This document shows positions 12,712 to 56,500 of a stretch of DNA of 64,000 nt, piece after piece (the stretch's first letter is position 1; every line of letters starts with the position of its first letter). The notes below the pieces were generated by a model. It saw only the letters and a list, made by a program, of their open reading frames with translations, ran no database searches and was not told where the DNA came from. This stretch comes from a phage: NCBI GenBank assembly GCA_026683435.1, contig GCA_026683435.1_4866.1. The stretch is one strand, 5' to 3'. The position numbers and the translations under genes are program-made.

Positions 12712-12741
12712 TTTGATAGCTCCTTAAACAAAAAAATAACT

Positions 12742-12763
12742 AGGGTGTCCATATGGACACCCT
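12742..12763 (-). terminator. intrinsic terminator (minus strand)
   Basis: palindromic hairpin agggtgtccatatggacaccct followed by T-run on minus strand. Confidence 0.6.
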
Positions 12764-12773
12764 AATACGTATT

Positions 12774-22015: not shown

Positions 22016-22046
22016 AGGTGTTATCCTATTATGAGATGTTGTCTCG

Positions 22047-22081
22047 GATAGATAATATCTGTCTGAGTTCTTTTTGAGATG
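22047..22081. promoter_or_regulatory. conserved intergenic element, copy A
   Basis: GATAGATAATATCTGTCTGAGTTCTTTTTGAGATG; aligns with copies at 31167, 40259, 49531. Confidence 0.5.
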
Positions 22082-27858: not shown

Positions 27859-27898
27859 TTAATACTCCTTTAGATTAATGGTCGATTAAAATAAAACT

Positions 27899-31166: not shown

Positions 31167-31201
31167 TAGATAATATCTATCTCAGATTACTTTAAGAGAT
31201 G
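31167..31201. promoter_or_regulatory. conserved intergenic element, copy B
   Basis: TAGATAATATCTATCTCAGATTACTTTAAGAGATG; overlaps stop codon of upstream minus gene. Confidence 0.5.
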
Positions 31202-36663: not shown

Positions 36664-37287
36664 ATGGCACAACTGTTGCCTAACACGCCTCAGGTTAACC
36701 TTGAGGGGTTGTTCAAGGTTAAGACACCTTATACGTTGCCAGATAAAGTGATTTACCGTGTTGACGCGGTACAGAACTTTCCGAAACTCCAACGTAATAA
36801 TATTGACGTTTATAACAAGTATTATAAACCTGTCGGCCTAACTCGTGACGACTATATCAGCGACGCTAATGTCGAAGCCTCGATTGTAACATTAAAGTCG
36901 AGGGACGGTCAAGTCTACGAGTTGCCTGATACGTACATTGAGACGTATCCTGGACTGAACGGGTTAAATTATAGACGCAATGTGGTGGTTATTGACCTGG
37001 CATTAATACCCGAATACGTCGATGTCACACTGCTAACGAACGACCTGAAAAGCATCTTAGAACGCGGTTTAGGAATCGAAGCACGTGTGGACATCACATC
37101 GATGGATTACGAAGGGACGGTGACGGAAGAAGAACACTTGCAAATGGAAGCGGTGCGTAAAGCCAAAATCCGTGAGCAGGTTCCTCTGACAGAACAAGTT
37201 GCAACACTCACTAAGCAGAATCAAGAACTGCAGGCGTTGAATGATGCGATGTTGAAAATCCTGAAAGATAACGGGTTAACAAATTAA
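36664..37287 (+). CDS. hypothetical protein with C-terminal coiled-coil
   Basis: 207-aa ORF, RBS aggagg. Confidence 0.7.
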   Translation: MAQLLPNTPQVNLEGLFKVKTPYTLPDKVIYRVDAVQNFPKLQRNNIDVYNKYYKPVGLTRDDYISDANVEASIVTLKSRDGQVYELPDTYIETYPGLNGLNYRRNVVVIDLALIPEYVDVTLLTNDLKSILERGLGIEARVDITSMDYEGTVTEEEHLQMEAVRKAKIREQVPLTEQVATLTKQNQELQALNDAMLKILKDNGLTN

Positions 37288-37303
37288 AGAAAAAAAAAGA
37301 ACT

Positions 37304-37324
37304 ACCTACTCCCTTGGGAGTAGG
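37304..37324. terminator. bidirectional intrinsic terminator
   Basis: hairpin cctactccc-ttg-gggagtagg flanked by A-run and T-run. Confidence 0.75.
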
Positions 37325-37345
37325 TAGGCTTTTATTTTTATCGCA

Positions 37346-38503
37346 TTATTTACCGATGATATCACGGACCATTGCTTTGATTGTGGCAACAGTACGTTTC
37401 TTTTTCGGCAGCTTGCGGATTTCTGCGTACAGTTTATCCAGGTTCAGCGTTTTCTGTACCTGCGCAACAATCTGCATTTGCTCTTCGTCGATCTTCACTT
37501 CGACGGTTTGTTCCTGCATTTTGCCCAGTTCCTGAATCACACTGGAAACCGATACCGGATAAGCTGTTGATTTTGGACGTTCGATACCGAGGGTAACAAA
37601 GATTTCGTCGTCAATAAACACATTTTCGATATCAACCAAGTTTTCCAGAATGATTTCATCGTGGTCTTCATCTTCCGACGCATTCGGGTATGGACGTTTG
37701 TAGGTGTAATCCCACACGTCATAACCGAGTTTATCTGCGAGTTGTACGAAACCTTCCCAGGTTACTTCGCCGGGGTTGATAGTCTGACCACGGAAACCGG
37801 GGTTGGCCGTAAAGACTTTCACCCAGTCGATGTTCGCGATGTTACGACACTCTTCCAGCGGCGCGTAACGATCTCCCACTTCGTCATTGTCAGTCTCTTC
37901 AACATGCTCTGCTTCACAACGCTCGAAAGTAACTGAGTGTGGTTTACCGTCACCGAAGATAACGGAGGCAGCACGCCAGTCTTCGATAGTCCACTGGACA
38001 TGAGTCAATTCAATGTAACAATGCCCAACCTTAACACGACCATGTGGAGCACTTACTGGTTTAATCAGCTCACCTGGTTCGAAGAAGAATTCGTCAGAAT
38101 GTGCAATGGCATACCAGACACCATCAACACCTTCAACGAGAATAGACCAGTTATAAGGCGCGTGGCAATTTTGGAAAGCTACGCCCAGCATACTTCCCCA
38201 ACGGTCATCTGGCGAATATTTCAGTGGCGGCAGGTTATCAAACTGAAGAGTTTGAGAAGAAAGGCACAACTTATTACGCAGGTGCGGCAGCGGCAGATAA
38301 GCCTCCACATTGTTATCGACCAGCGCATTGTAAAGATCCGGGTTGATAACACCGGTGCCAGTGACGTGTTGTGCAATCAGAGCTTCTGAATATGCACGAA
38401 TACCTTCGTAGCTAAGCACATACGCACGGTCACGTACTACACGAGCCATATCTTCGATTACGGAAATTGGAAATTTCATGTTAATAGTCCTTATAAAAGT
38501 CAA
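37346..38503 (-). CDS. hypothetical protein
   Basis: 385-aa ORF. Confidence 0.7.
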   Translation of the reverse strand: MTFIRTINMKFPISVIEDMARVVRDRAYVLSYEGIRAYSEALIAQHVTGTGVINPDLYNALVDNNVEAYLPLPHLRNKLCLSSQTLQFDNLPPLKYSPDDRWGSMLGVAFQNCHAPYNWSILVEGVDGVWYAIAHSDEFFFEPGELIKPVSAPHGRVKVGHCYIELTHVQWTIEDWRAASVIFGDGKPHSVTFERCEAEHVEETDNDEVGDRYAPLEECRNIANIDWVKVFTANPGFRGQTINPGEVTWEGFVQLADKLGYDVWDYTYKRPYPNASEDEDHDEIILENLVDIENVFIDDEIFVTLGIERPKSTAYPVSVSSVIQELGKMQEQTVEVKIDEEQMQIVAQVQKTLNLDKLYAEIRKLPKKKRTVATIKAMVRDIIGK

Positions 38504-40258: not shown

Positions 40259-40291
40259 GATGATAATATCTATTTGAAACTTTTTGGGATG
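40259..40291. promoter_or_regulatory. conserved intergenic element, copy C
   Basis: GATGATAATATCTATTTGAAACTTTTTGGGATG; overlaps stop codon of macro-domain gene. Confidence 0.45.
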
Positions 40292-41410: not shown

Positions 41411-41929
41411 TTAATCAATCTCGCGTTTAGGGCTCCTGTGAAACTTCACTTCAGGATTATCCTTAAATGTTTCCCAGATAAGGGACGCACCACCAAGCTC
41501 TTTGGTTTTCGTGGTGCGCAGGTGTGAGTCGCCGAGCATAACAGCACAACGTCCTTTTGCCATATACTTTTTAATTTTTTCAACCATTTTAGCTTCACGA
41601 ATATAAAAAGAACGGCTAAAGTTTACAGCCATTCCCTTTTTATCCTTGATATCTTTAGCGTAGGTTGCGTCGCTCCAGTCATCGATCCCAATAGCAGGGA
41701 TGCCGAGTTTCTTAGCCAACTCCAGCCCCATGGGCCCAATAGAGTACATCTTCTCCTTTAATGCCTTATCTTGCGCTTTTGCAGTGTGATATTCATACGG
41801 CCCCAGTTCTTCACACAGTAAAAAATCGTATGGTTTTTTCCGATGGTTATCGATGATCGCCCATTCAACACGATTACGATCGGCCGTGGTATGAATTTCC
41901 CCATATATGTCAACACGAATGTCTGTCAT
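41411..41929 (-). CDS. hypothetical protein
   Basis: 172-aa ORF. Confidence 0.65.
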   Translation of the reverse strand: MTDIRVDIYGEIHTTADRNRVEWAIIDNHRKKPYDFLLCEELGPYEYHTAKAQDKALKEKMYSIGPMGLELAKKLGIPAIGIDDWSDATYAKDIKDKKGMAVNFSRSFYIREAKMVEKIKKYMAKGRCAVMLGDSHLRTTKTKELGGASLIWETFKDNPEVKFHRSPKREID

Positions 41930-42171
41930 TTTAATTCCTCAAAAACTATAGACGCCGGCAGCGTACCAAGCGCTGCTTTAATACACGTACTCAGCGGAGT
42001 ATCATCGAACGCAACACGACCGATAGTACCCACGTTGATGTGTTTTGGATTTACGGGTAAGAACTCCTTCGCCCGTTCGTACTCAGCCCAACAGACATCG
42101 GTGTTTAAAGCTGAAAACCCAGGACGGTGAAACATAAATAGCACCCCTCGCGTAAAAAATACCCCACTCAT
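41926..42171 (-). CDS. hypothetical protein
   Basis: 81-aa ORF, 4-nt overlap with downstream gene. Confidence 0.45.
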   Translation of the reverse strand: MSGVFFTRGVLFMFHRPGFSALNTDVCWAEYERAKEFLPVNPKHINVGTIGRVAFDDTPLSTCIKAALGTLPASIVFEELK

Positions 42172-42206
42172 AGTGAGGCATAATCGTAAGGAGTGCTAAA
42201 ACAGGA

Positions 42207-42722
42207 CTATGCTACCGCAGTCCTTAAAGGATCATCTGCTTCCGCAGGAACCTGCTTCGTAAATTCAAGCCATTGTCCGTCTGTAGAGACGGTCTTGTCA
42301 AAACCGCGAGCGGTAAAGAACGCAATACCAGCTTCCTGGCAAGCGTATATTCCCCCATGCGCACTGGTGAACTTTTCATTCACATCAAGCGCATCAAAAA
42401 TCTGCGTCATCGTTTTGCGACGGCGTGCCATTTCGGACACGAACATCGTACGAATCTTCAGAACCCCAGCGATTACGCGATAGAGACAGTAACCAACAGG
42501 GGTACCCCCTTCCAGAGCAACACAAGCACGGTTCCCCGCCAACAGTTTCTCCAGAGTGAGGTTCGGAATCTCACCTTTTTCGATATGGAGTATGGTACGT
42601 TGGTGGTTCAGAAATTTATAATGCAGCCCCAACAGCTGTTTATTTTGTGCTTCCGTTAAATCTGAAGATGAGGAAAGAATGACAATTTCGGCCATGAGCT
42701 GAATTCCTAAGTGAGCTTTCAC
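42207..42722 (-). CDS. GNAT-like acetyltransferase (tentative)
   Basis: 171-aa ORF; GTG start at 42722 or ATG at 42695; C-terminal YACQEAGIAFFTARGF resembles a GNAT motif. Confidence 0.55.
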   Translation of the reverse strand: MKAHLGIQLMAEIVILSSSSDLTEAQNKQLLGLHYKFLNHQRTILHIEKGEIPNLTLEKLLAGNRACVALEGGTPVGYCLYRVIAGVLKIRTMFVSEMARRRKTMTQIFDALDVNEKFTSAHGGIYACQEAGIAFFTARGFDKTVSTDGQWLEFTKQVPAEADDPLRTAVA

Positions 42723-42763
42723 CTGCGATGAAAGCGAGTAACGAAGAATTGCGTTTGTGTTTT

Positions 42764-42787
42764 CTTAAGTTTACCGGTAAACTTAAG
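42764..42787. promoter_or_regulatory. perfect 24-bp palindrome (candidate operator)
   Basis: CTTAAGTTTACCGGTAAACTTAAG, about 40 nt upstream of the GNAT-like gene. Confidence 0.6.
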
Positions 42788-42841
42788 CGGTGTATACCGC
42801 TGCAGGTAAAGACCAGTTCTCTATCGGAACCGTGTCTTTGA

Positions 42842-43120
42842 TCAACAACGTCGTTGAAAACGCTGCGATGCTGAGGTAACCTTCCGTCGCCACATTCGCT
42901 CATGGCGCTTCTGATTACCACGCCAGTCTTCCCCGACTGTACGTGAAACTGCAAAATCATCCGGCCCGCAGACTTCCGCGATGTCTGCTAGAAGGTTCTT
43001 TGAAGACCCTATAGCCATCCCCGCGCTCGAAAGAACGATACGCCGGGTTGGCACGGCCGCCCCTGAACCCACGACCACGGGATCAGAGACTGTTTCACTG
43101 TTACATGATACTTCTCCCAC
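42842..43120 (-). CDS. hypothetical Gly/Ser-rich protein
   Basis: 92-aa ORF with GTG start and RBS aggaggg. Confidence 0.45.
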   Translation of the reverse strand: MGEVSCNSETVSDPVVVGSGAAVPTRRIVLSSAGMAIGSSKNLLADIAEVCGPDDFAVSRTVGEDWRGNQKRHERMWRRKVTSASQRFQRRC

Positions 43121-43138
43121 TTCGTAATTACCCTCCTG

Positions 43139-43246
43139 TTAAAACCAACCTTGCGTCAATGCAAGGATTGCGCCTAGGGCGTATGCGCCTGCTCCTAGTA
43201 CCAGACTACAGATGATACACCCAACCCACTTCACTAAAATAACCAT
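43139..43246 (-). CDS. small hydrophobic peptide (35 aa)
   Basis: Manual translation MVILVKWVGCIICSLVLGAGAYALGAILALTQGWF; below ORF-track cutoff; weak RBS. Confidence 0.3.
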   Translation of the reverse strand: MVILVKWVGCIICSLVLGAGAYALGAILALTQGWF

Positions 43247-43365
43247 GATGCCAGAAATGCTCCGATTGCACAGATGATAATCGTAATGCCAAGGTCTGTC
43301 CAGGTGGCACCATCATACGCACCTGTTGCAATCATCGCCGCGTTGACACTATTCACGACTGTCAT
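43234..43365 (-). CDS. small hydrophobic peptide (43 aa)
   Basis: Manual translation MTVVNSVNAAMIATGAYDGATWTDLGITIIICAIGAFLASWLF; RBS aaggga. Confidence 0.35.
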   Translation of the reverse strand: MTVVNSVNAAMIATGAYDGATWTDLGITIIICAIGAFLASWLF

Positions 43366-43552
43366 AAGCCGGGTCCCTTAAACGCGGGGGCTTGCTCCAC
43401 AGATTACCGAAGTAAACCCCTTCTAAGAACACCAAAACAACTAAGCCCCAAAAGGCAGGCGTAGCGCGAGACATGAAAATACCGAGTAGCACCACAGTGT
43501 GCATTACCACAACTGCCCAAAACTTTAAACGACCAGGTTTACGTCTTGCCAT
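43349..43552 (-). CDS. small membrane protein (67 aa)
   Basis: ORF track 43349..43597 (GTG start); trimmed to ATG 43552 (MARRKPGRLKFWAVVVMHTVVLLGIF…). Confidence 0.45.
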   Translation of the reverse strand: MARRKPGRLKFWAVVVMHTVVLLGIFMSRATPAFWGLVVLVFLEGVYFGNLWSKPPRLRDPAYDSRE

Positions 43553-43643
43553 GGAATGCCCATCCTTTCGTGCGGATAATCCAACCCCAGGCACCACGAA
43601 TCAACCACAGTGCAATACCGGTTAATACGATACCTTCAATCAT
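43539..43643 (-). CDS. small hydrophobic peptide (34 aa)
   Basis: Manual translation MIEGIVLTGIALWLIRGAWGWIIRTKGWAFHGKT; RBS ggagaa; ATGA overlap with upstream stop. Confidence 0.4.
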   Translation of the reverse strand: MIEGIVLTGIALWLIRGAWGWIIRTKGWAFHGKT

Positions 43644-43831
43644 GTCCGTTCTCCTATATCTCGCCACTCACAACGCGTGTCGAACAGACGTTCTTTAAGA
43701 GCAGCAGCTAAATAAACGACCGCAGCGATAACCACTACGGTTGCACAAAAGGAGAGGTACAGTACCATCACAACAAACTGAAGGAACTGAAAACCCCACC
43801 AAGCCCATAAGCGCCAACCGTTATGATGCAT
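43640..43831 (-). CDS. small membrane protein (63 aa)
   Basis: ORF track; hydrophobic helix FQFLQFVVMVLYLSFCATVVVIAAVVYLAAAL. Confidence 0.5.
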   Translation of the reverse strand: MHHNGWRLWAWWGFQFLQFVVMVLYLSFCATVVVIAAVVYLAAALKERLFDTRCEWRDIGERT

Positions 43832-46331
43832 ATTTGATTATTACCCCTTCGTTATAAACCGGTGGAAGCGTTACACCTTCTGGCTCCACGACACAGTAGG
43901 TGGCTTCGTTAAGTTTAGAATGAACTTCCGCTTCATGCGAAACGACCAGCAATTGAGAAAACTCTCCCGACAACGCCAACGATTTAATGAAGTTGACCAG
44001 TCGATTTTTGTGTTCTTCATCCATGCCTTCAGAGGGTTCATCCAATAACAAAGGATAGTTTTGTAAACCAAGCGCTTTATACGCTGTTAAACGAAACATC
44101 ATGTTAAAGATAATACGCTGTGCCTTCGAACCTTTCTTCACATCCGGCACCAGTTCTTCATGGTCTTTTAATCGCACCGGGAAAGTATAATCCAAATCCC
44201 CGTCGGTTAGATCGCATGGAATAACCTGCATCGGATATGCCCATACCGTTTCGATATACCGATTCATTAAATCCATGATGCGGGTAATCGCAGCATAAAA
44301 GTAACGACGCAATAATCCCTTTTCGGGTGAGACGGCATTGATAATCAATCTGGCATGATGGTGTTCTTTGAGCAACTCAGCTTGCTCTTTTTCCAATTCC
44401 GCTAAACGTGCAATAGCCCCTTCCATTTGACGAAACCGTTCACGAGCGGAAGTGTACGCATCGAGCTTCGCTTCGCGTCGGTTTAACAACTCGCGAACCA
44501 CGACGTTGTTAACGGAGATGTTCATTTCCGATACCAGATGTTCGTAGCCTTTTTGGAAACGTTCGATTGCTTCTTTGGTTTGTTGCAGTTGGGTGGTTTC
44601 GCGTTCCAGCACATTGGCTTGTCTGCGGTATTCTATCAGTCGACGGTTAGCCCCGTCCAGTTGTGAACGGATATGTTCAATTTTCTGGCTCAGCGCACCA
44701 TCAACGTTACCTACTGCGGCAACAGCCTCTTGCCATTCCCGTTCCGCTGTTGCAAGCTTCTCCGATTGACGCAGATACATCATGGCCGAATCTAGCTCTT
44801 CAGTAAAGGCACGTGCAATGGCACCGTAACGATCCCGCGCCATGGTGAAGATATCCAGCTCCTGCAGTTTACGGAAAAACAAACCGACAACGGGATGGTT
44901 GGAATACGACATGACGATTTCGCGAATCGTACGTAAGCTACGGACGTCCTCTTCAATCTCTTTGCGGTCACGCAAAAGACTATCCATTTCGTCTTTCAGC
45001 TGCTTCTTCCAACCTTCATTATCGTTGATGGCCTTTTCAATTTCAGGTAACGACTTACGAATCCCAGGACGGAAACGGTGGTTACACTGTGGACAATCAA
45101 CTTCTGCAGTTTCTAAGAAGTGTTGACGGTCGTGGTATAAACCGTGTAGCACATTCTCACAACGTTGCAGCTTTTCAGATAGACCCGCAGAGGTTAAATC
45201 CATACCCTGTAAACGCTTCTCTAACGCTCCCAGGCGCTCTGTTGTCTTTAACTGGTCCAGATGCATGGACAACGGTAAATTCCAGTTACAGGCATCGTTT
45301 AACGCGTTCTGAATGCTATCCACATCGATGCGGGTGCCTTCAAACAGAGCCGGGAACATCCAGTTCTGTTGGAACGTTGCCAGTTCCTGTTTTAAGCTGT
45401 CGATTGTTTGTTTTAGACCGGTATGGTTGCGCATCAGATATGCTTGACGCGACTCCTCATCCAGTAGCTGTGACAACTCTTTATTGTACATGTTGCATTC
45501 AGTTTCAGCAGAGGCCGCTTGCTCACGCCAGGCAACCACACGACTTTGAAACTCGTTAATCAGTTCGTCAGAAGGCAGAACGCCATAACGTTCCATAATG
45601 AGTTTTACAGCCGGTTGCAACGAGGCAATGCGTTTCCGGATACTATCAACCGAAACGGCGTTATCTAAACCGGGTCTCGCTTCAATGGTGCGGTTTAGTT
45701 CCTGAAGCTCAACGTCCAGTTCTTTCAAACGAACTTCTAAACGTGCACGATCTTCTTCATCGTCCACCACGCGCATTTTTGCCTCACCGATTTTACGGCC
45801 GGTGTGCTCAATGGCCCCACTTAAACTGGAAGCGAGTTTACGCAGACGACGATAACAACCAACGACGTACGTCAGATCAGATTCTGACATTAACGTAAAC
45901 CATTTACGACGAACTTCAGTGGTAGCGTCTGTTAATAAGGTTTCACCGTTAATTAACTCTTTGATTTCTTTGGTGATCCCGGTTAACTGTTCCACCATGG
46001 AGTTGTAAACTTTGGCGTTTACCGAGTCTACGACGGAGACACCTTTAGTGATGTTGAAGATACTACAAGACAGAGAAGAGCCACGACGCAGGACTTCAAA
46101 CTTAAGACGGTCGTCCCCAACTAACGCGTAGTTAGTGTAGGAACCACCTTCACGGAATTCTGATTTTGCTGGAGCTAAGGGGAGAAAAACAGATAGGAGG
46201 CTTGTTTTACCGCAGCCGTTGCCACCGAGGATGATGGTAACGGTTGACTTAAGGGTGAAATCAAACGTTTCGATTTCATGTAACCCCATGCCGGTAAATC
46301 CTTTCAAAATGATACGTTCGACCTTGAGCAT
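43821..46331 (-). CDS. Rad50/SbcC-like recombination/repair ATPase
   Basis: N-terminal Walker A GGNGCGKTSLL; central CxxC zinc hook (CPQCNHRF) within coiled-coil-like sequence; C-terminal Walker B LLLDEPSEGMD; 836 aa. Confidence 0.85.
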   Translation of the reverse strand: MLKVERIILKGFTGMGLHEIETFDFTLKSTVTIILGGNGCGKTSLLSVFLPLAPAKSEFREGGSYTNYALVGDDRLKFEVLRRGSSLSCSIFNITKGVSVVDSVNAKVYNSMVEQLTGITKEIKELINGETLLTDATTEVRRKWFTLMSESDLTYVVGCYRRLRKLASSLSGAIEHTGRKIGEAKMRVVDDEEDRARLEVRLKELDVELQELNRTIEARPGLDNAVSVDSIRKRIASLQPAVKLIMERYGVLPSDELINEFQSRVVAWREQAASAETECNMYNKELSQLLDEESRQAYLMRNHTGLKQTIDSLKQELATFQQNWMFPALFEGTRIDVDSIQNALNDACNWNLPLSMHLDQLKTTERLGALEKRLQGMDLTSAGLSEKLQRCENVLHGLYHDRQHFLETAEVDCPQCNHRFRPGIRKSLPEIEKAINDNEGWKKQLKDEMDSLLRDRKEIEEDVRSLRTIREIVMSYSNHPVVGLFFRKLQELDIFTMARDRYGAIARAFTEELDSAMMYLRQSEKLATAEREWQEAVAAVGNVDGALSQKIEHIRSQLDGANRRLIEYRRQANVLERETTQLQQTKEAIERFQKGYEHLVSEMNISVNNVVVRELLNRREAKLDAYTSARERFRQMEGAIARLAELEKEQAELLKEHHHARLIINAVSPEKGLLRRYFYAAITRIMDLMNRYIETVWAYPMQVIPCDLTDGDLDYTFPVRLKDHEELVPDVKKGSKAQRIIFNMMFRLTAYKALGLQNYPLLLDEPSEGMDEEHKNRLVNFIKSLALSGEFSQLLVVSHEAEVHSKLNEATYCVVEPEGVTLPPVYNEGVIIKYAS

Positions 46332-47709: not shown

Positions 47710-47738
47710 GTTATAACATCTGTCTGAAAACTTTTCGG
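47710..47738. promoter_or_regulatory. partial copy of conserved element (copy E)
   Basis: GTTATAACATCTGTCTGAAAACTTTTCGG; shares ATCTGTCTGA with copy A. Confidence 0.3.
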
Positions 47739-49530: not shown

Positions 49531-49561
49531 AGGTAATATATATCTGAGATATTTTACAATG
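49531..49561. promoter_or_regulatory. conserved intergenic element, copy D
   Basis: AGGTAATATATATCTGAGATATTTTACAATG; begins at stop codon of upstream minus gene. Confidence 0.45.
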
Positions 49562-53259: not shown

Positions 53260-53322
53260 GGTGTTTAAGCGACTGTGGGTTTATACACAATGCTCACTAA
53301 GATGACATCTATCTGTAAAAAC

Positions 53323-55175: not shown

Positions 55176-55206
55176 TCGGCCTGCAGGCAAAAAAAAGATA
55201 TAGGTA

Positions 55207-55229
55207 CCCTACTCCCAACGGGAGTAGGG
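55207..55229. terminator. bidirectional intrinsic terminator
   Basis: hairpin ccctactccc-aac-gggagtaggg flanked by A-run and long T-run. Confidence 0.75.
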
Positions 55230-55237
55230 TTTACCTT

Positions 55238-56500
55238 TTATTTTTTTCGTGCTTTGTAGCGATGCATTTCAACAAATGGCTTACCCCAAGCCCCGAAAGG
55301 CCCGACGATCGCCTGCGCGTCGTTTACCAAATTCTGGTTATACCAACGCGCGTTCCCCAACAAAAAGTTTTCCCGGTCGAAGAATGTGGTATTAAAGACC
55401 CACTCCCCTTCTTCCCAGGTCGGCCAGTACCCTACACATTTACCAATACGGTTAAAGATAGGACCTAGCGTCTTCTTCCCATCTGGGTCAGTCGGGTCTT
55501 TTAAATAGAACCGGCCCCAGATAGCGTTGTGGCTTATTCCGTGAATCTCTTTTTCGAGATACGGGTTGTCTATCGTAAAGATAAACGAGGATTCGTGCGT
55601 CAGCAACGCTTTTAACGTTTCTGAGTTACGAATACGTTGAACGGACGTAGGCGTACTTAAATCACCTACACCGATGGCGTCCCAATCGTAATAGCGACGG
55701 GTTTCCAATACAATCTTCGCCACGCTAAGGTTTGGCAGACTCAGCATAATCGCACGGTCGCTGAAATAGCCCTGCGGTGGCAACCAATGCAGAATACCCC
55801 CGATGACGAACCCAACGGTTTTCCCTGTAATGGAATCGGGTAAGGTCAACATTAACGAAGAATAGTAATCTCGCGTAGTATCGAGTTTGTTCATCGTTAA
55901 ACCGGATATGGGGTAAGTCTTCACTTTACCAATATTCGCCATCACTAGACAGCCGATGTCGGGTGTGTTGGCTCTCCGCACGATGTTACCAGCGCCGGTT
56001 AAGCGAACACCCACTGGGTCAGATTGGTGCGGTACCCATTGACCGTTGATGTTGTACAGTACCCCGGTACGGTATTTCTCTTTCCACTCATCGTCGCAGA
56101 CTACAACAACGTCGTGTGCATCATCAGGATTGAAGTCCTGAGTGTAGTGGTACCCAGGAGGGCACAGGTGCGTTTCTACGGGCACATCTGCATTAATAGA
56201 CTGGTAATGTGCCTCAACGAATTCGAGCTTCGGTAGGCCCTTCCCAAGCGTTGGAATCGCGATTCCTGACTTGGTGTTTAACCAATCTTGCAACGTGTCC
56301 GTACGGTTTTGTAAATCAGCCAGGTGATACTGGCTATAGAAGGTATATTCGGCACCTAGTGCTTCTAGTCCTACTTCGAAAAAGTGGTAGTTAGCACAAA
56401 GGGTATTTAAGGGCTGCGTGACATCGATGGTTCCCCAAGTTCGGGTGTCTCGAGAGAAGCCAAAAGCGCTGTCGGCCCGCACTTGATAAGCAGTAGTCAC
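55238..56500 (-). CDS. hypothetical protein
   Basis: 420-aa ORF between two plus-strand virion islands. Confidence 0.7.
   Translation of the reverse strand: MTTAYQVRADSAFGFSRDTRTWGTIDVTQPLNTLCANYHFFEVGLEALGAEYTFYSQYHLADLQNRTDTLQDWLNTKSGIAIPTLGKGLPKLEFVEAHYQSINADVPVETHLCPPGYHYTQDFNPDDAHDVVVVCDDEWKEKYRTGVLYNINGQWVPHQSDPVGVRLTGAGNIVRRANTPDIGCLVMANIGKVKTYPISGLTMNKLDTTRDYYSSLMLTLPDSITGKTVGFVIGGILHWLPPQGYFSDRAIMLSLPNLSVAKIVLETRRYYDWDAIGVGDLSTPTSVQRIRNSETLKALLTHESSFIFTIDNPYLEKEIHGISHNAIWGRFYLKDPTDPDGKKTLGPIFNRIGKCVGYWPTWEEGEWVFNTTFFDRENFLLGNARWYNQNLVNDAQAIVGPFGAWGKPFVEMHRYKARKK

Follow-up and report, generated by a model that had tools for sequence, protein, structure and literature searches.

The perfect 24-bp palindrome CTTAAGTTTACCGGTAAACTTAAG that lies upstream of an acetyltransferase gene in a jumbo phage may have arisen recently and in one lineage, when template switching made an older imperfect repeat in a transcribed and structured mRNA leader exact, and it would then have no conserved function of its own. 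We hold this reading about as strongly as we doubt it. The proposed route is one replication template switch in a quasipalindrome, in which the conserved right arm would have been copied onto the left arm (TAAGC to TTAAG). The polycistronic mRNA would thereby gain an extra A/U-rich stem-loop (H3, predicted) between pre-existing hairpins, and the palindrome would at most modulate the folding or stability of the leader. On this reading the palindrome belongs to a familiar class, that of inverted repeats of an mRNA leader made perfect by a known mutational route. As a regulatory element it is probably unimportant, and its value is that of a clean natural case of a quasipalindrome "corrected" to perfection in a jumbo phage, from which it follows that a striking perfect dyad may arise by mutation and need not be an operator.

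The window, by which we mean the whole stretch of 64,000 nucleotides that was analyzed, belongs to an SPN3US-like jumbo phage (Seoulvirus). With 2 kb around the palindrome as the query, 36 phage records matched, and the top matches are Escherichia phage vB_EcoM_EC001 (99.1%), Salmonella phage JN03 (98.7%) and SPN3US (97.6%), each of which is a 240-kb jumbo phage of this genus. The complete EC001 genome (99% identical, 240 kb) served as the reference for whole-genome scans. All local genes are co-directional on the minus strand, and transcription would pass from an SMC/SbcC-like gene through a run of tiny membrane-protein genes and the palindrome region to the acetyltransferase gene and then to more small genes (Table 1). 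Neither a canonical terminator nor an early-promoter motif is found between gene X and the acetyltransferase gene, and the 146-nt spacer between them is probably transcribed through as part of a polycistronic mRNA. Read-through, processing and folding of this leader are discussed below as predictions. No transcript maps for SPN3US or the SPN3US-like group were found in the literature searched.

Table 1. Features of the palindrome locus, in window coordinates and ordered as they would be transcribed
Feature	Position	Strand	Sequence or size	Remarks
SMC/SbcC-like gene	43821-46331	-		First in transcription order at the locus
Hydrophobic 35-aa ORF	43139-43246	-	MVILVKWVGCIICSLVLGAGAYALGAILALTQGWF	Conserved in pEa_SNUABM_29 and SPAsTU
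Shine-Dalgarno sequence of gene X	43131-43137	-	AGGAGGG	10 nt before GTG
Gene X	42842-43120	-	92 aa	GTG start; phrog_15402 (function unknown), E 8.6e-12
Non-coding leader/spacer	42696-42841		146 nt	Between gene X and the acetyltransferase gene
Hairpin H1	42808-42839	-	AAAGAC-A-CGGUUC...GAACUG-GUCUUU	Begins 3 nt past the gene X stop
Hairpin H2	42787-42800	-	GCGGT-AUAC-ACCGC	Second palindrome of the original prediction
Perfect 24-bp palindrome	42764-42787		CTTAAGTTTACCGGTAAACTTAAG	Hairpin H3 in the minus-strand mRNA
Derived bases 42782, 42783 and 42785	42782-42785	-	TTAAG	Ancestral TAAGC
Right arm of the palindrome	42764-42775	-	GGTAAACTTAAG	Acetyltransferase-proximal; invariant in 12 SPN3US-like phages
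Conserved linear motif	42738-42763	-	AAAACACAAACGCAATTCTTCGTTAC	Unpaired; between H3 and H4
Hairpin H4	42715-42735	-	GCUUUCA-UCGCAGG-UGAAAGC	Ends 6 nt before AGGA
Shine-Dalgarno core of the acetyltransferase gene	42705-42708	-	AGGA	Within conserved CACTyAGGAA
GNAT-type acetyltransferase gene	42207-42695	-	162 aa	Starts with ATG; homologous to SPN3US gp075

The downstream gene, which the original prediction called GNAT-like, is indeed acetyltransferase-like by two profiles: it matches Pfam Acetyltransf_1 at 21.2 bits, barely over the cut-off of 20.7, and phrog_3810 with an E value of 1e-42. A search of IMG/VR with this gene returns SPN3US itself as the sole match. Translation most likely starts at ATG 42695, given the AGGA core at 42705-42708, the annotation of SPN3US and the conservation of the first codons (ATGGCCGAAATT/ATGACCGAGATT) across three genera. 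With this start, 69 nt separate the palindrome from the gene downstream; the distance of about 40 nt that was first proposed applies to the GTG at 42722 only.

The exact palindrome reported at 42764-42787 is confirmed by the sequence. As RNA it is predicted to fold into a hairpin with a 10-bp stem and a CCGG loop (-8.4 kcal/mol), and 4 of the 12 base pairs in its stem are G/C (33% G+C) around a central C|G at 42775/42776. A perfect palindrome of 24 bp is expected by chance about 0.004 times per 64-kb window and 0.014 times per 240-kb genome. Order-1 shuffling of EC001, done 30 times, gave maximum lengths of 14-22 bp for perfect palindromes, and the real genome has three of 24 bp. The flanks read CGGTGTATACC on the plus strand and AAAACACAAACG on the minus strand, with CGGTGTATACCG as the plus-strand 3' flank. 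The second, imperfect palindrome (GCGGTGTATACCGC) that had been placed next to the first does exist, though at 42787-42800 rather than 42788-42801, so that the two have G42787 in common. Within 41500-44500, Rfam yields only a chance miRNA match (E 0.52), and no tRNA is found in the window and no sigma-70-like promoter at the palindrome. A replication origin or skew switch was considered and rejected, as cumulative GC skew is monotonic across the site.

An intrinsic (Rho-independent) terminator can likewise be set aside at this position, as had been proposed from the lack of a flanking T-run. The only T-run nearby is the TTTT at 42760-42763, which lies 5' of the palindrome on the plus strand, and since none follows the palindrome on the 3' side of either strand, it does not have the form of a terminator. 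The stem is A/U-rich (33% G+C), AAAACAC comes after it, and the site is absent from the output of the terminator scan. The phage's own terminators, which are often bidirectional (window 12741-12764, 37277-37352 and 55189-55247), resemble the palindrome in being intergenic repeats with zero or short loops, and two of them are also perfect 24-bp palindromes. However, they have G+C-rich stems of the GGGAGT/ACTCCC type with an A-run on the 5' side and a T-run on the 3' side, and they stand immediately past stop codons, whereas the palindrome lies in the middle of a leader. The other two 24-bp palindromes in EC001 (at 43614, and at 200455, which corresponds to window 12741-12764) are ordinary terminators of this kind, followed by cctttcttttttt and cttattttttt; the sequence that follows the palindrome at 42764-42787 is aaaacacaaacg.

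The distribution of the palindrome among related phages suggests that its full symmetry is recent. In an alignment of 14 phages in transcript orientation (12 SPN3US-like phages and the outgroups pEa_SNUABM_29 and SPAsTU), together with read-archive (Logan) contigs, perfect symmetry is confined to one sublineage, made up of the window, EC001, JN03, Lh1B and the contigs L028 and L030. SEGD1, Proteus phage 7, MET_P1_082_240, 1252, SPLA1a, SPN3US, SPFM4, SaP7 and the contig L029 have CTAAGCTTTACCGGTAAACTTAAG instead. The outgroups have CTAAGCAACACCGGTATACTTAAG and CCAAACAACACCGGTAGACTTAAG, in which the left arm is largely lost, and a left arm of the form CTAAGC/CCAAAC is common to eight SPN3US-like phages, one Logan contig and the two outgroups. 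The imperfect state is thus the ancestral one, as indicated by the outgroup sequences together with CTAAGCTTTACCGGTAAACTTAAG in the other SPN3US-like phages. The right arm is the only conserved arm, and its segment CCGGTAnACTTAAG is retained in both outgroups. Farther away, the leaders of Erskinevirus (Asesino and phiEaH2) and Machinavirus have no equivalent of H3, and in Machinavirus H2 directly adjoins GTAAAGAAGA.

The differences that separate the perfect from the imperfect form are tightly clustered. The window differs from its nearest relative, MET_P1, at 14 of 801 positions, three of which are 42782, 42783 and 42785; these three are the sole differences throughout 42540-42839, and the next one lies 55 nt off at 42840. 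All three derived bases mirror the right arm and create complementarity that perfects the dyad. Clustered changes templated by the opposite arm are the signature of quasipalindrome-associated template-switch mutation (PMC7202029), and two of its marks are found here, an ancestral imperfect repeat and a clustered, templated change with no other change nearby. A single template-switch event within the quasipalindrome therefore probably made the left arm mirror the right arm. The pattern resembles the template switching described in E. coli reporters, phage T4 rII and yeast (PMC7202029), where an imperfect repeat also becomes perfect through a tight templated cluster with intact surroundings. Unlike in those assays, the event is deduced here from natural isolates, and it would have involved a jumbo phage's own replication machinery. 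An untemplated T insertion and C deletion 4 nt apart would yield the same sequence.

A single origin on the phylogeny would be a further mark of such an event. Of the carriers of the perfect allele, the window, EC001, JN03, L028 and L030 have flanking markers in common. Lh1B carries the derived allele on SPN3US-like flanks, which would reflect either recombination or an artefact of reference-guided assembly; its record looks reference-guided. The isolates with the perfect allele come from several countries, which indicates that it is at least tolerated and that it could have been selected.

Variability has a boundary at the palindrome's center. Among the 12 SPN3US-like phages there are 15 variable sites in the 66 nt of 42776-42841, 3 in the 80 nt of 42696-42775 and 3 in 156 nt of the acetyltransferase coding part, so variability is dense from gene X to the left arm and sparse from the right arm onward. 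Recombination may have set this boundary. The right arm CCGGTAnACTTAAG is among the best-conserved blocks of the leader, an observation that runs against the by-product reading. Its high conservation implies that something there is functional, and this could be a contact for a protein or a polymerase.

The leader as a whole is predicted to form four successive hairpins (z = -3.18 relative to shuffled sequences). Compensatory changes occur in 5 of the 12 pairs of H1 and in 1 of the 5 pairs of H2, where GCGGU/ACCGC becomes GCAGU/ACUGC in the outgroups. At the position of H2, Machinavirus phages have CCGCA/UGCGG or UAGCA/UGCUA, and in the leader of phiEaH2 H2 is not predicted. The two cores of the linear motif, ACAyACAC/ACACAAC and CTTCGTT, keep their order in Erskinevirus and Machinavirus leaders. 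Because RNAalifold on alignment A2 puts H4 in the wrong register in the outgroups, this hairpin was judged leader by leader. Each of the nine distinct leaders, which come from three genera, has a hairpin of the H4 type (7-14 bp, -6.8 to -13.8 kcal/mol, predicted), and in all nine it ends 6-7 nt before AGGA even though the stems of different genera have unrelated sequences. From these comparisons, selection appears to maintain H1, H2, the linear motif and above all H4.

Hairpins upstream of the Shine-Dalgarno sequence are familiar from bacterial and phage mRNA leaders, with examples in the ompA 5' stem-loop and in the hairpins retained at T7 RNase III sites. It is H4 and not the palindrome that may be likened to these elements, in that a structure known from predicted folds is kept at a fixed 6-7 nt from the ribosome-binding site and its sequence varies.

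H3 could instead be a selected RNA element that joins H1 and H2 in forming a non-canonical 3'-end, pause, processing or stabilizing signal for the gene X transcript, and it would then uncouple or tune expression of the acetyltransferase. We regard this as rather unlikely. The three hairpins do stand in a row from 3 nt past the gene X stop, and both H1 and H2 show covariation. Canonical intrinsic terminators are present at only 52 of 132 mapped 3' ends in a related jumbo phage, 201phi2-1 (PMC11512511), which indicates that in this phage family an RNA end can be marked by a hairpin that lacks a U-tract. With the perfect allele, H3 is also predicted to shift from about -1 to -8 kcal/mol. However, H3 is missing or unstable in most relatives, although they keep H1, H2 and H4: the isolated hairpin is predicted at -8.4 kcal/mol for the window type, -0.8 kcal/mol for the SPN3US type and 0 to -1 kcal/mol for the outgroups. 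Nine H3 pairs were counted in the 14-phage alignment; 9 of 12 distinct sequences leave two of these pairs open, and five H3 pairs depart by unpaired cells only. The element also lacks a U-tract, and its A/U-rich stem is below the length of a classical RNase III site.

The original prediction favored a dimeric protein-binding site over a terminator, and only the second half of this choice stands, since a protein site gets little comparative support. In its most specific form, a phage or host LacI-like dimer of the GntR/IdnR type would bind the dyad about 80 nt upstream and control transcription of the acetyltransferase gene. LacI-family sites are even palindromes of 16-22 nt that are centered on CG and mostly precede start codons by 30-140 nt (PMC4052901), and the palindrome, which is even, has a central CG and is centered 80 nt before ATG 42695, fits this description. 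Among LacI/GalR operators it comes closest to that of E. coli GntR, with a TTACC.GTAA core; its own core TTACCGGTAA agrees with the GntR consensus ATGTTACCCGTAACAT at 9 of 10 positions (PMC10450161). The 12-bp core TTTACCGGTAAA is retained in 12 of 12 SPN3US-like phages, and the phage genome encodes at least one Cro/C1-type HTH protein elsewhere, at 96948-97313 in EC001. A scan for the 20-mer core in 185,579 bacterial and archaeal genomes (596 Gb) found the nearly identical GGTAAGTTTACCGGTAAACTTACC in a Thermaceae genome, where it precedes a LacI-family gene (Pfam LacI, E 1e-18) by 27 nt and stands between TTGACA and the ATG of that regulator gene, which indicates that sequences of the palindrome's kind can be operators.

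Most of the comparative evidence argues against such an operator, and we consider it unlikely. Full symmetry is a derived state: 8 of the 12 SPN3US-like phages have 3 differences in the left arm, the left half-site is unconserved in the outgroups, and it is missing in Erskinevirus and Machinavirus despite the conserved gene pair and leader. Half-site positions -6 and -7 deviate from the GntR consensus. The two matches to the 20-mer in 596 Gb are near the chance expectation (about 0.5), and the exact 20-mer core was not found in IMG/VR, nor the 31-nt site in complete E. coli genomes. A cognate regulator is likewise lacking in the phage, as a LacI-family query finds no homologue in EC001 (tblastn, best E 3.8), and none of the neighboring genes has an HTH domain. 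It is also established that phiKZ-like phages use their own RNA polymerases, inside a compartment from which most host proteins are kept out (PMC7598289), and neither the early-promoter motif nor a sigma-70-like promoter overlaps the palindrome.

An operator of this type would also stand alone in the genome. The proposed search for further half-sites, run on the 240 kb of EC001 with up to one mismatch, finds no copy elsewhere outside coding sequence and thus no second site. At this threshold TTTACCGGTAAA occurs at two other places, both within genes, and GGTAAACTTAAG occurs at the palindrome locus only. No second copy of the leader was found in EC001 with blastn-short, and scans of the window and EC001 with the half-sites, the right arm plus its flank and the linear motif give nothing above chance.

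Transcription might alternatively start within the conserved part of the leader, with the right arm and linear motif (CCGGTAAACTTAAGAAAACACAAACGCAATTCTTCGTTAC) forming a promoter for the non-virion RNA polymerase just upstream of H4. The resulting mRNA would carry H4 as a stabilizing 5'-terminal hairpin, a role that its position suits. The right arm and linear motif belong to the part of the leader that varies least (at 3 sites in 80 nt, compared with 15 in 66 nt upstream), pieces of them occur in the same order in three genera, and 24 of the 67 mapped promoters of 201phi2-1 lack a recognizable motif (PMC11512511). However, no similar sequence was found upstream of other EC001 genes, and none of its k-mers is enriched upstream; k-mer enrichment across 117 upstream regions recovers only the Shine-Dalgarno, terminator, early-promoter and AATCGACCATTAATCTA motifs. 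The low variability also extends into the acetyltransferase coding sequence and may mark a recombination boundary rather than selection. We judge a promoter at this site to be very unlikely.

The promoter motifs that can be compared are also absent here. In phiKZ-like phages, the promoters of the virion polymerase (early) consist of a conserved A+T-rich motif, about 10-15 nt long, that is repeated upstream of early operons (PMC7598289). A candidate for such an early-promoter motif, CAGATAGATATTATC, has 19 copies in EC001 about 50 nt upstream of start codons, and several of its copies are in the window. No copy lies in 42696-42841, so the promoter motifs of the phage do not overlap the palindrome, and the conserved TATG of phiKZ late promoters (PMC7598289) is absent from the site as well. 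The candidate motif may be useful in its own right, as the transcription signals of SPN3US-like phages are unmapped in the literature searched.

The most far-reaching interpretation takes the whole 146-nt spacer for an undescribed cis-regulatory leader of Seoulvirus, Erskinevirus and Machinavirus, in which H1, H2, the linear motif and the SD-proximal H4 would control the acetyltransferase. The perfected dyad would then have rewired this leader in the sublineage of the window, either as a new dimer site (for a LacI/GntR-like host factor or a phage HTH protein) or as a new RNA switch. We judge this interpretation, too, to be very unlikely.

Apart from the palindrome, which we continue to read as a by-product of template switching, the analysis yields results that may prove more useful: the overlooked gene X (phrog_15402), the 35-aa ORF, a leader with a register-locked H4 that extends across genera, and the candidate early-promoter motif. 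The surrounding 400 bp or so had been described as having only weak ORFs, which is incorrect, as the region contains both conserved gene X (42842-43120) and the conserved 35-aa ORF. Syntenic homologues of gene X occur in the Machinavirus Erwinia phages Caitlin, Machina and pEa_SNUABM_4, and gene callers also predict the gene on independent read-archive assemblies. Its protein has a conserved C-terminal motif, EDWRGNQ.RHER, followed by a basic tail, and its stop codon is fixed in position in four phages but differs in identity (TGA/TGA/TAG/TAA). Variable sites among close relatives number 6, 8 and 8 by codon position. Because the third position shows no excess among these relatives, the case for gene X rests on the cross-genus evidence.

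The annotation of EC001 includes a 106-aa ORF that crosses the palindrome on the minus strand (42640-42960); this ORF was rejected as coding. It is disrupted in SPN3US, overlaps the acetyltransferase start and is merely the +1 frame of the gene X C-terminus. Most GenBank records of the group omit gene X and the 35-aa ORF or annotate them in the wrong frame. The 35-aa ORF would encode a membrane protein whose C-terminus, ILALTQGWF, is kept in the outgroups, and a terminator-like hairpin (43149-43166) is located within it.

In the spacer that precedes the acetyltransferase gene (42696-42841), a comparison of 12 SPN3US-like phages shows a high density of variable sites on the upstream side of the palindrome centre (15 of 66) and a low one on the downstream side (3 of 80), which stays low on into the acetyltransferase gene. 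The change in density at the dyad may mark a mosaic or recombination boundary. The record of Escherichia phage vB_EcoM_Lh1B (OK428535.1) agrees exactly with that of the close relative EC001 in length (240,200) and in feature coordinates, contains an N within the leader and may be a reference-guided assembly, so the derived palindrome that it places on SPN3US-like flanks should be read with caution. Several SPFM records could be aligned only as 9-30 fragments.

Most GenBank records of Seoulvirus phages either lack gene X, the conserved reading frame upstream of the spacer, or call it in another frame. The EC001 annotation has instead a 106-aa ORF at this locus, which crosses the palindrome and also covers the start of the acetyltransferase gene. 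Farther upstream, a hydrophobic 35-aa ORF shares 13 nt (43234-43246) with the end of the preceding 43-aa gene and terminates in a stop codon 1 nt ahead of the gene X SD.

The hairpin near the acetyltransferase SD and its equivalents (L003, L004, L006-L008, L023-L025) have unrelated stem sequences and a fixed spacing to that SD. The distance is 6-7 nt in three phage genera (Seoulvirus, Erskinevirus and Machinavirus), and these hairpins are candidates for a conserved element that acts on translation or mRNA stability.

The phage genome has two other perfect 24-bp palindromes, and the one within the window is a canonical bidirectional terminator. Similar palindromes also occur in bacteria. The near-identical copy in a Thermaceae MAG has a TTGACA box on one side and, on the other, the start of a gene for a LacI-family regulator, of which it is likely the autoregulatory operator. 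The shorter copy in Elizabethkingia miricola has A+T-rich surroundings without a long ORF, in a locus that is incomplete on its right side.

Two further motifs recur upstream of genes. The A+T-rich CAGAyAGATrTTATC, with 19 copies in the EC001 genome, sits some 50 nt ahead of start codons and probably serves SPN3US-like phages as their early promoter, used by the virion RNA polymerase; two copies on opposite strands overlap at ~22050 in the window. The second motif, AATCGACCATTAATCTA, lies directly 5' of the SD AAGGAGTATT in several genes and could either provide a context for translation initiation or act as a promoter whose leader is very short.

Locations of genes, hairpins, palindromes and recurrent motifs (window coordinates unless another sequence is named)
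Feature	Location	Strand	Remarks
Gene X	42842-43120	-	conserved; 92 aa; phrog_15402; EDWRGNQ.RHER motif and a basic tail at the C-terminus
106-aa ORF	42640-42960	-	
SD-proximal hairpin	42715-42735	-	
Hydrophobic ORF	43139-43246	-	35 aa; C-terminus ILALTQGWF conserved
Terminator-like hairpin CCTTGCATTGACGCAAGG+TTGGTTTT	43149-43166		inside hydrophobic ORF; invariant
Second perfect palindrome TAGGGTGTCCATATGGACACCCTA	12741-12764		24 bp; A-run and T-run on its flanks
Third perfect palindrome	EC001 43614-43637		24 bp; between convergent genes
Near-identical palindrome GGTAAGTTTACCGGTAAACTTACC	L031 7120-7143		Thermaceae MAG JADMIM010000056.1
20-bp palindrome copy	L032 7964-7983		Elizabethkingia miricola
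CAGAyAGATrTTATC	22045-22059	+	
CAGAyAGATrTTATC	22051-22065, 31169-31183, 40262-40276, 47712-47726, 49532-49546, 53301-53315	-	
AATCGACCATTAATCTA	27871-27887	-	
AATCGACCATTAATCTA	EC001 59578, 67886, 96917, 116710, 185338, 223738
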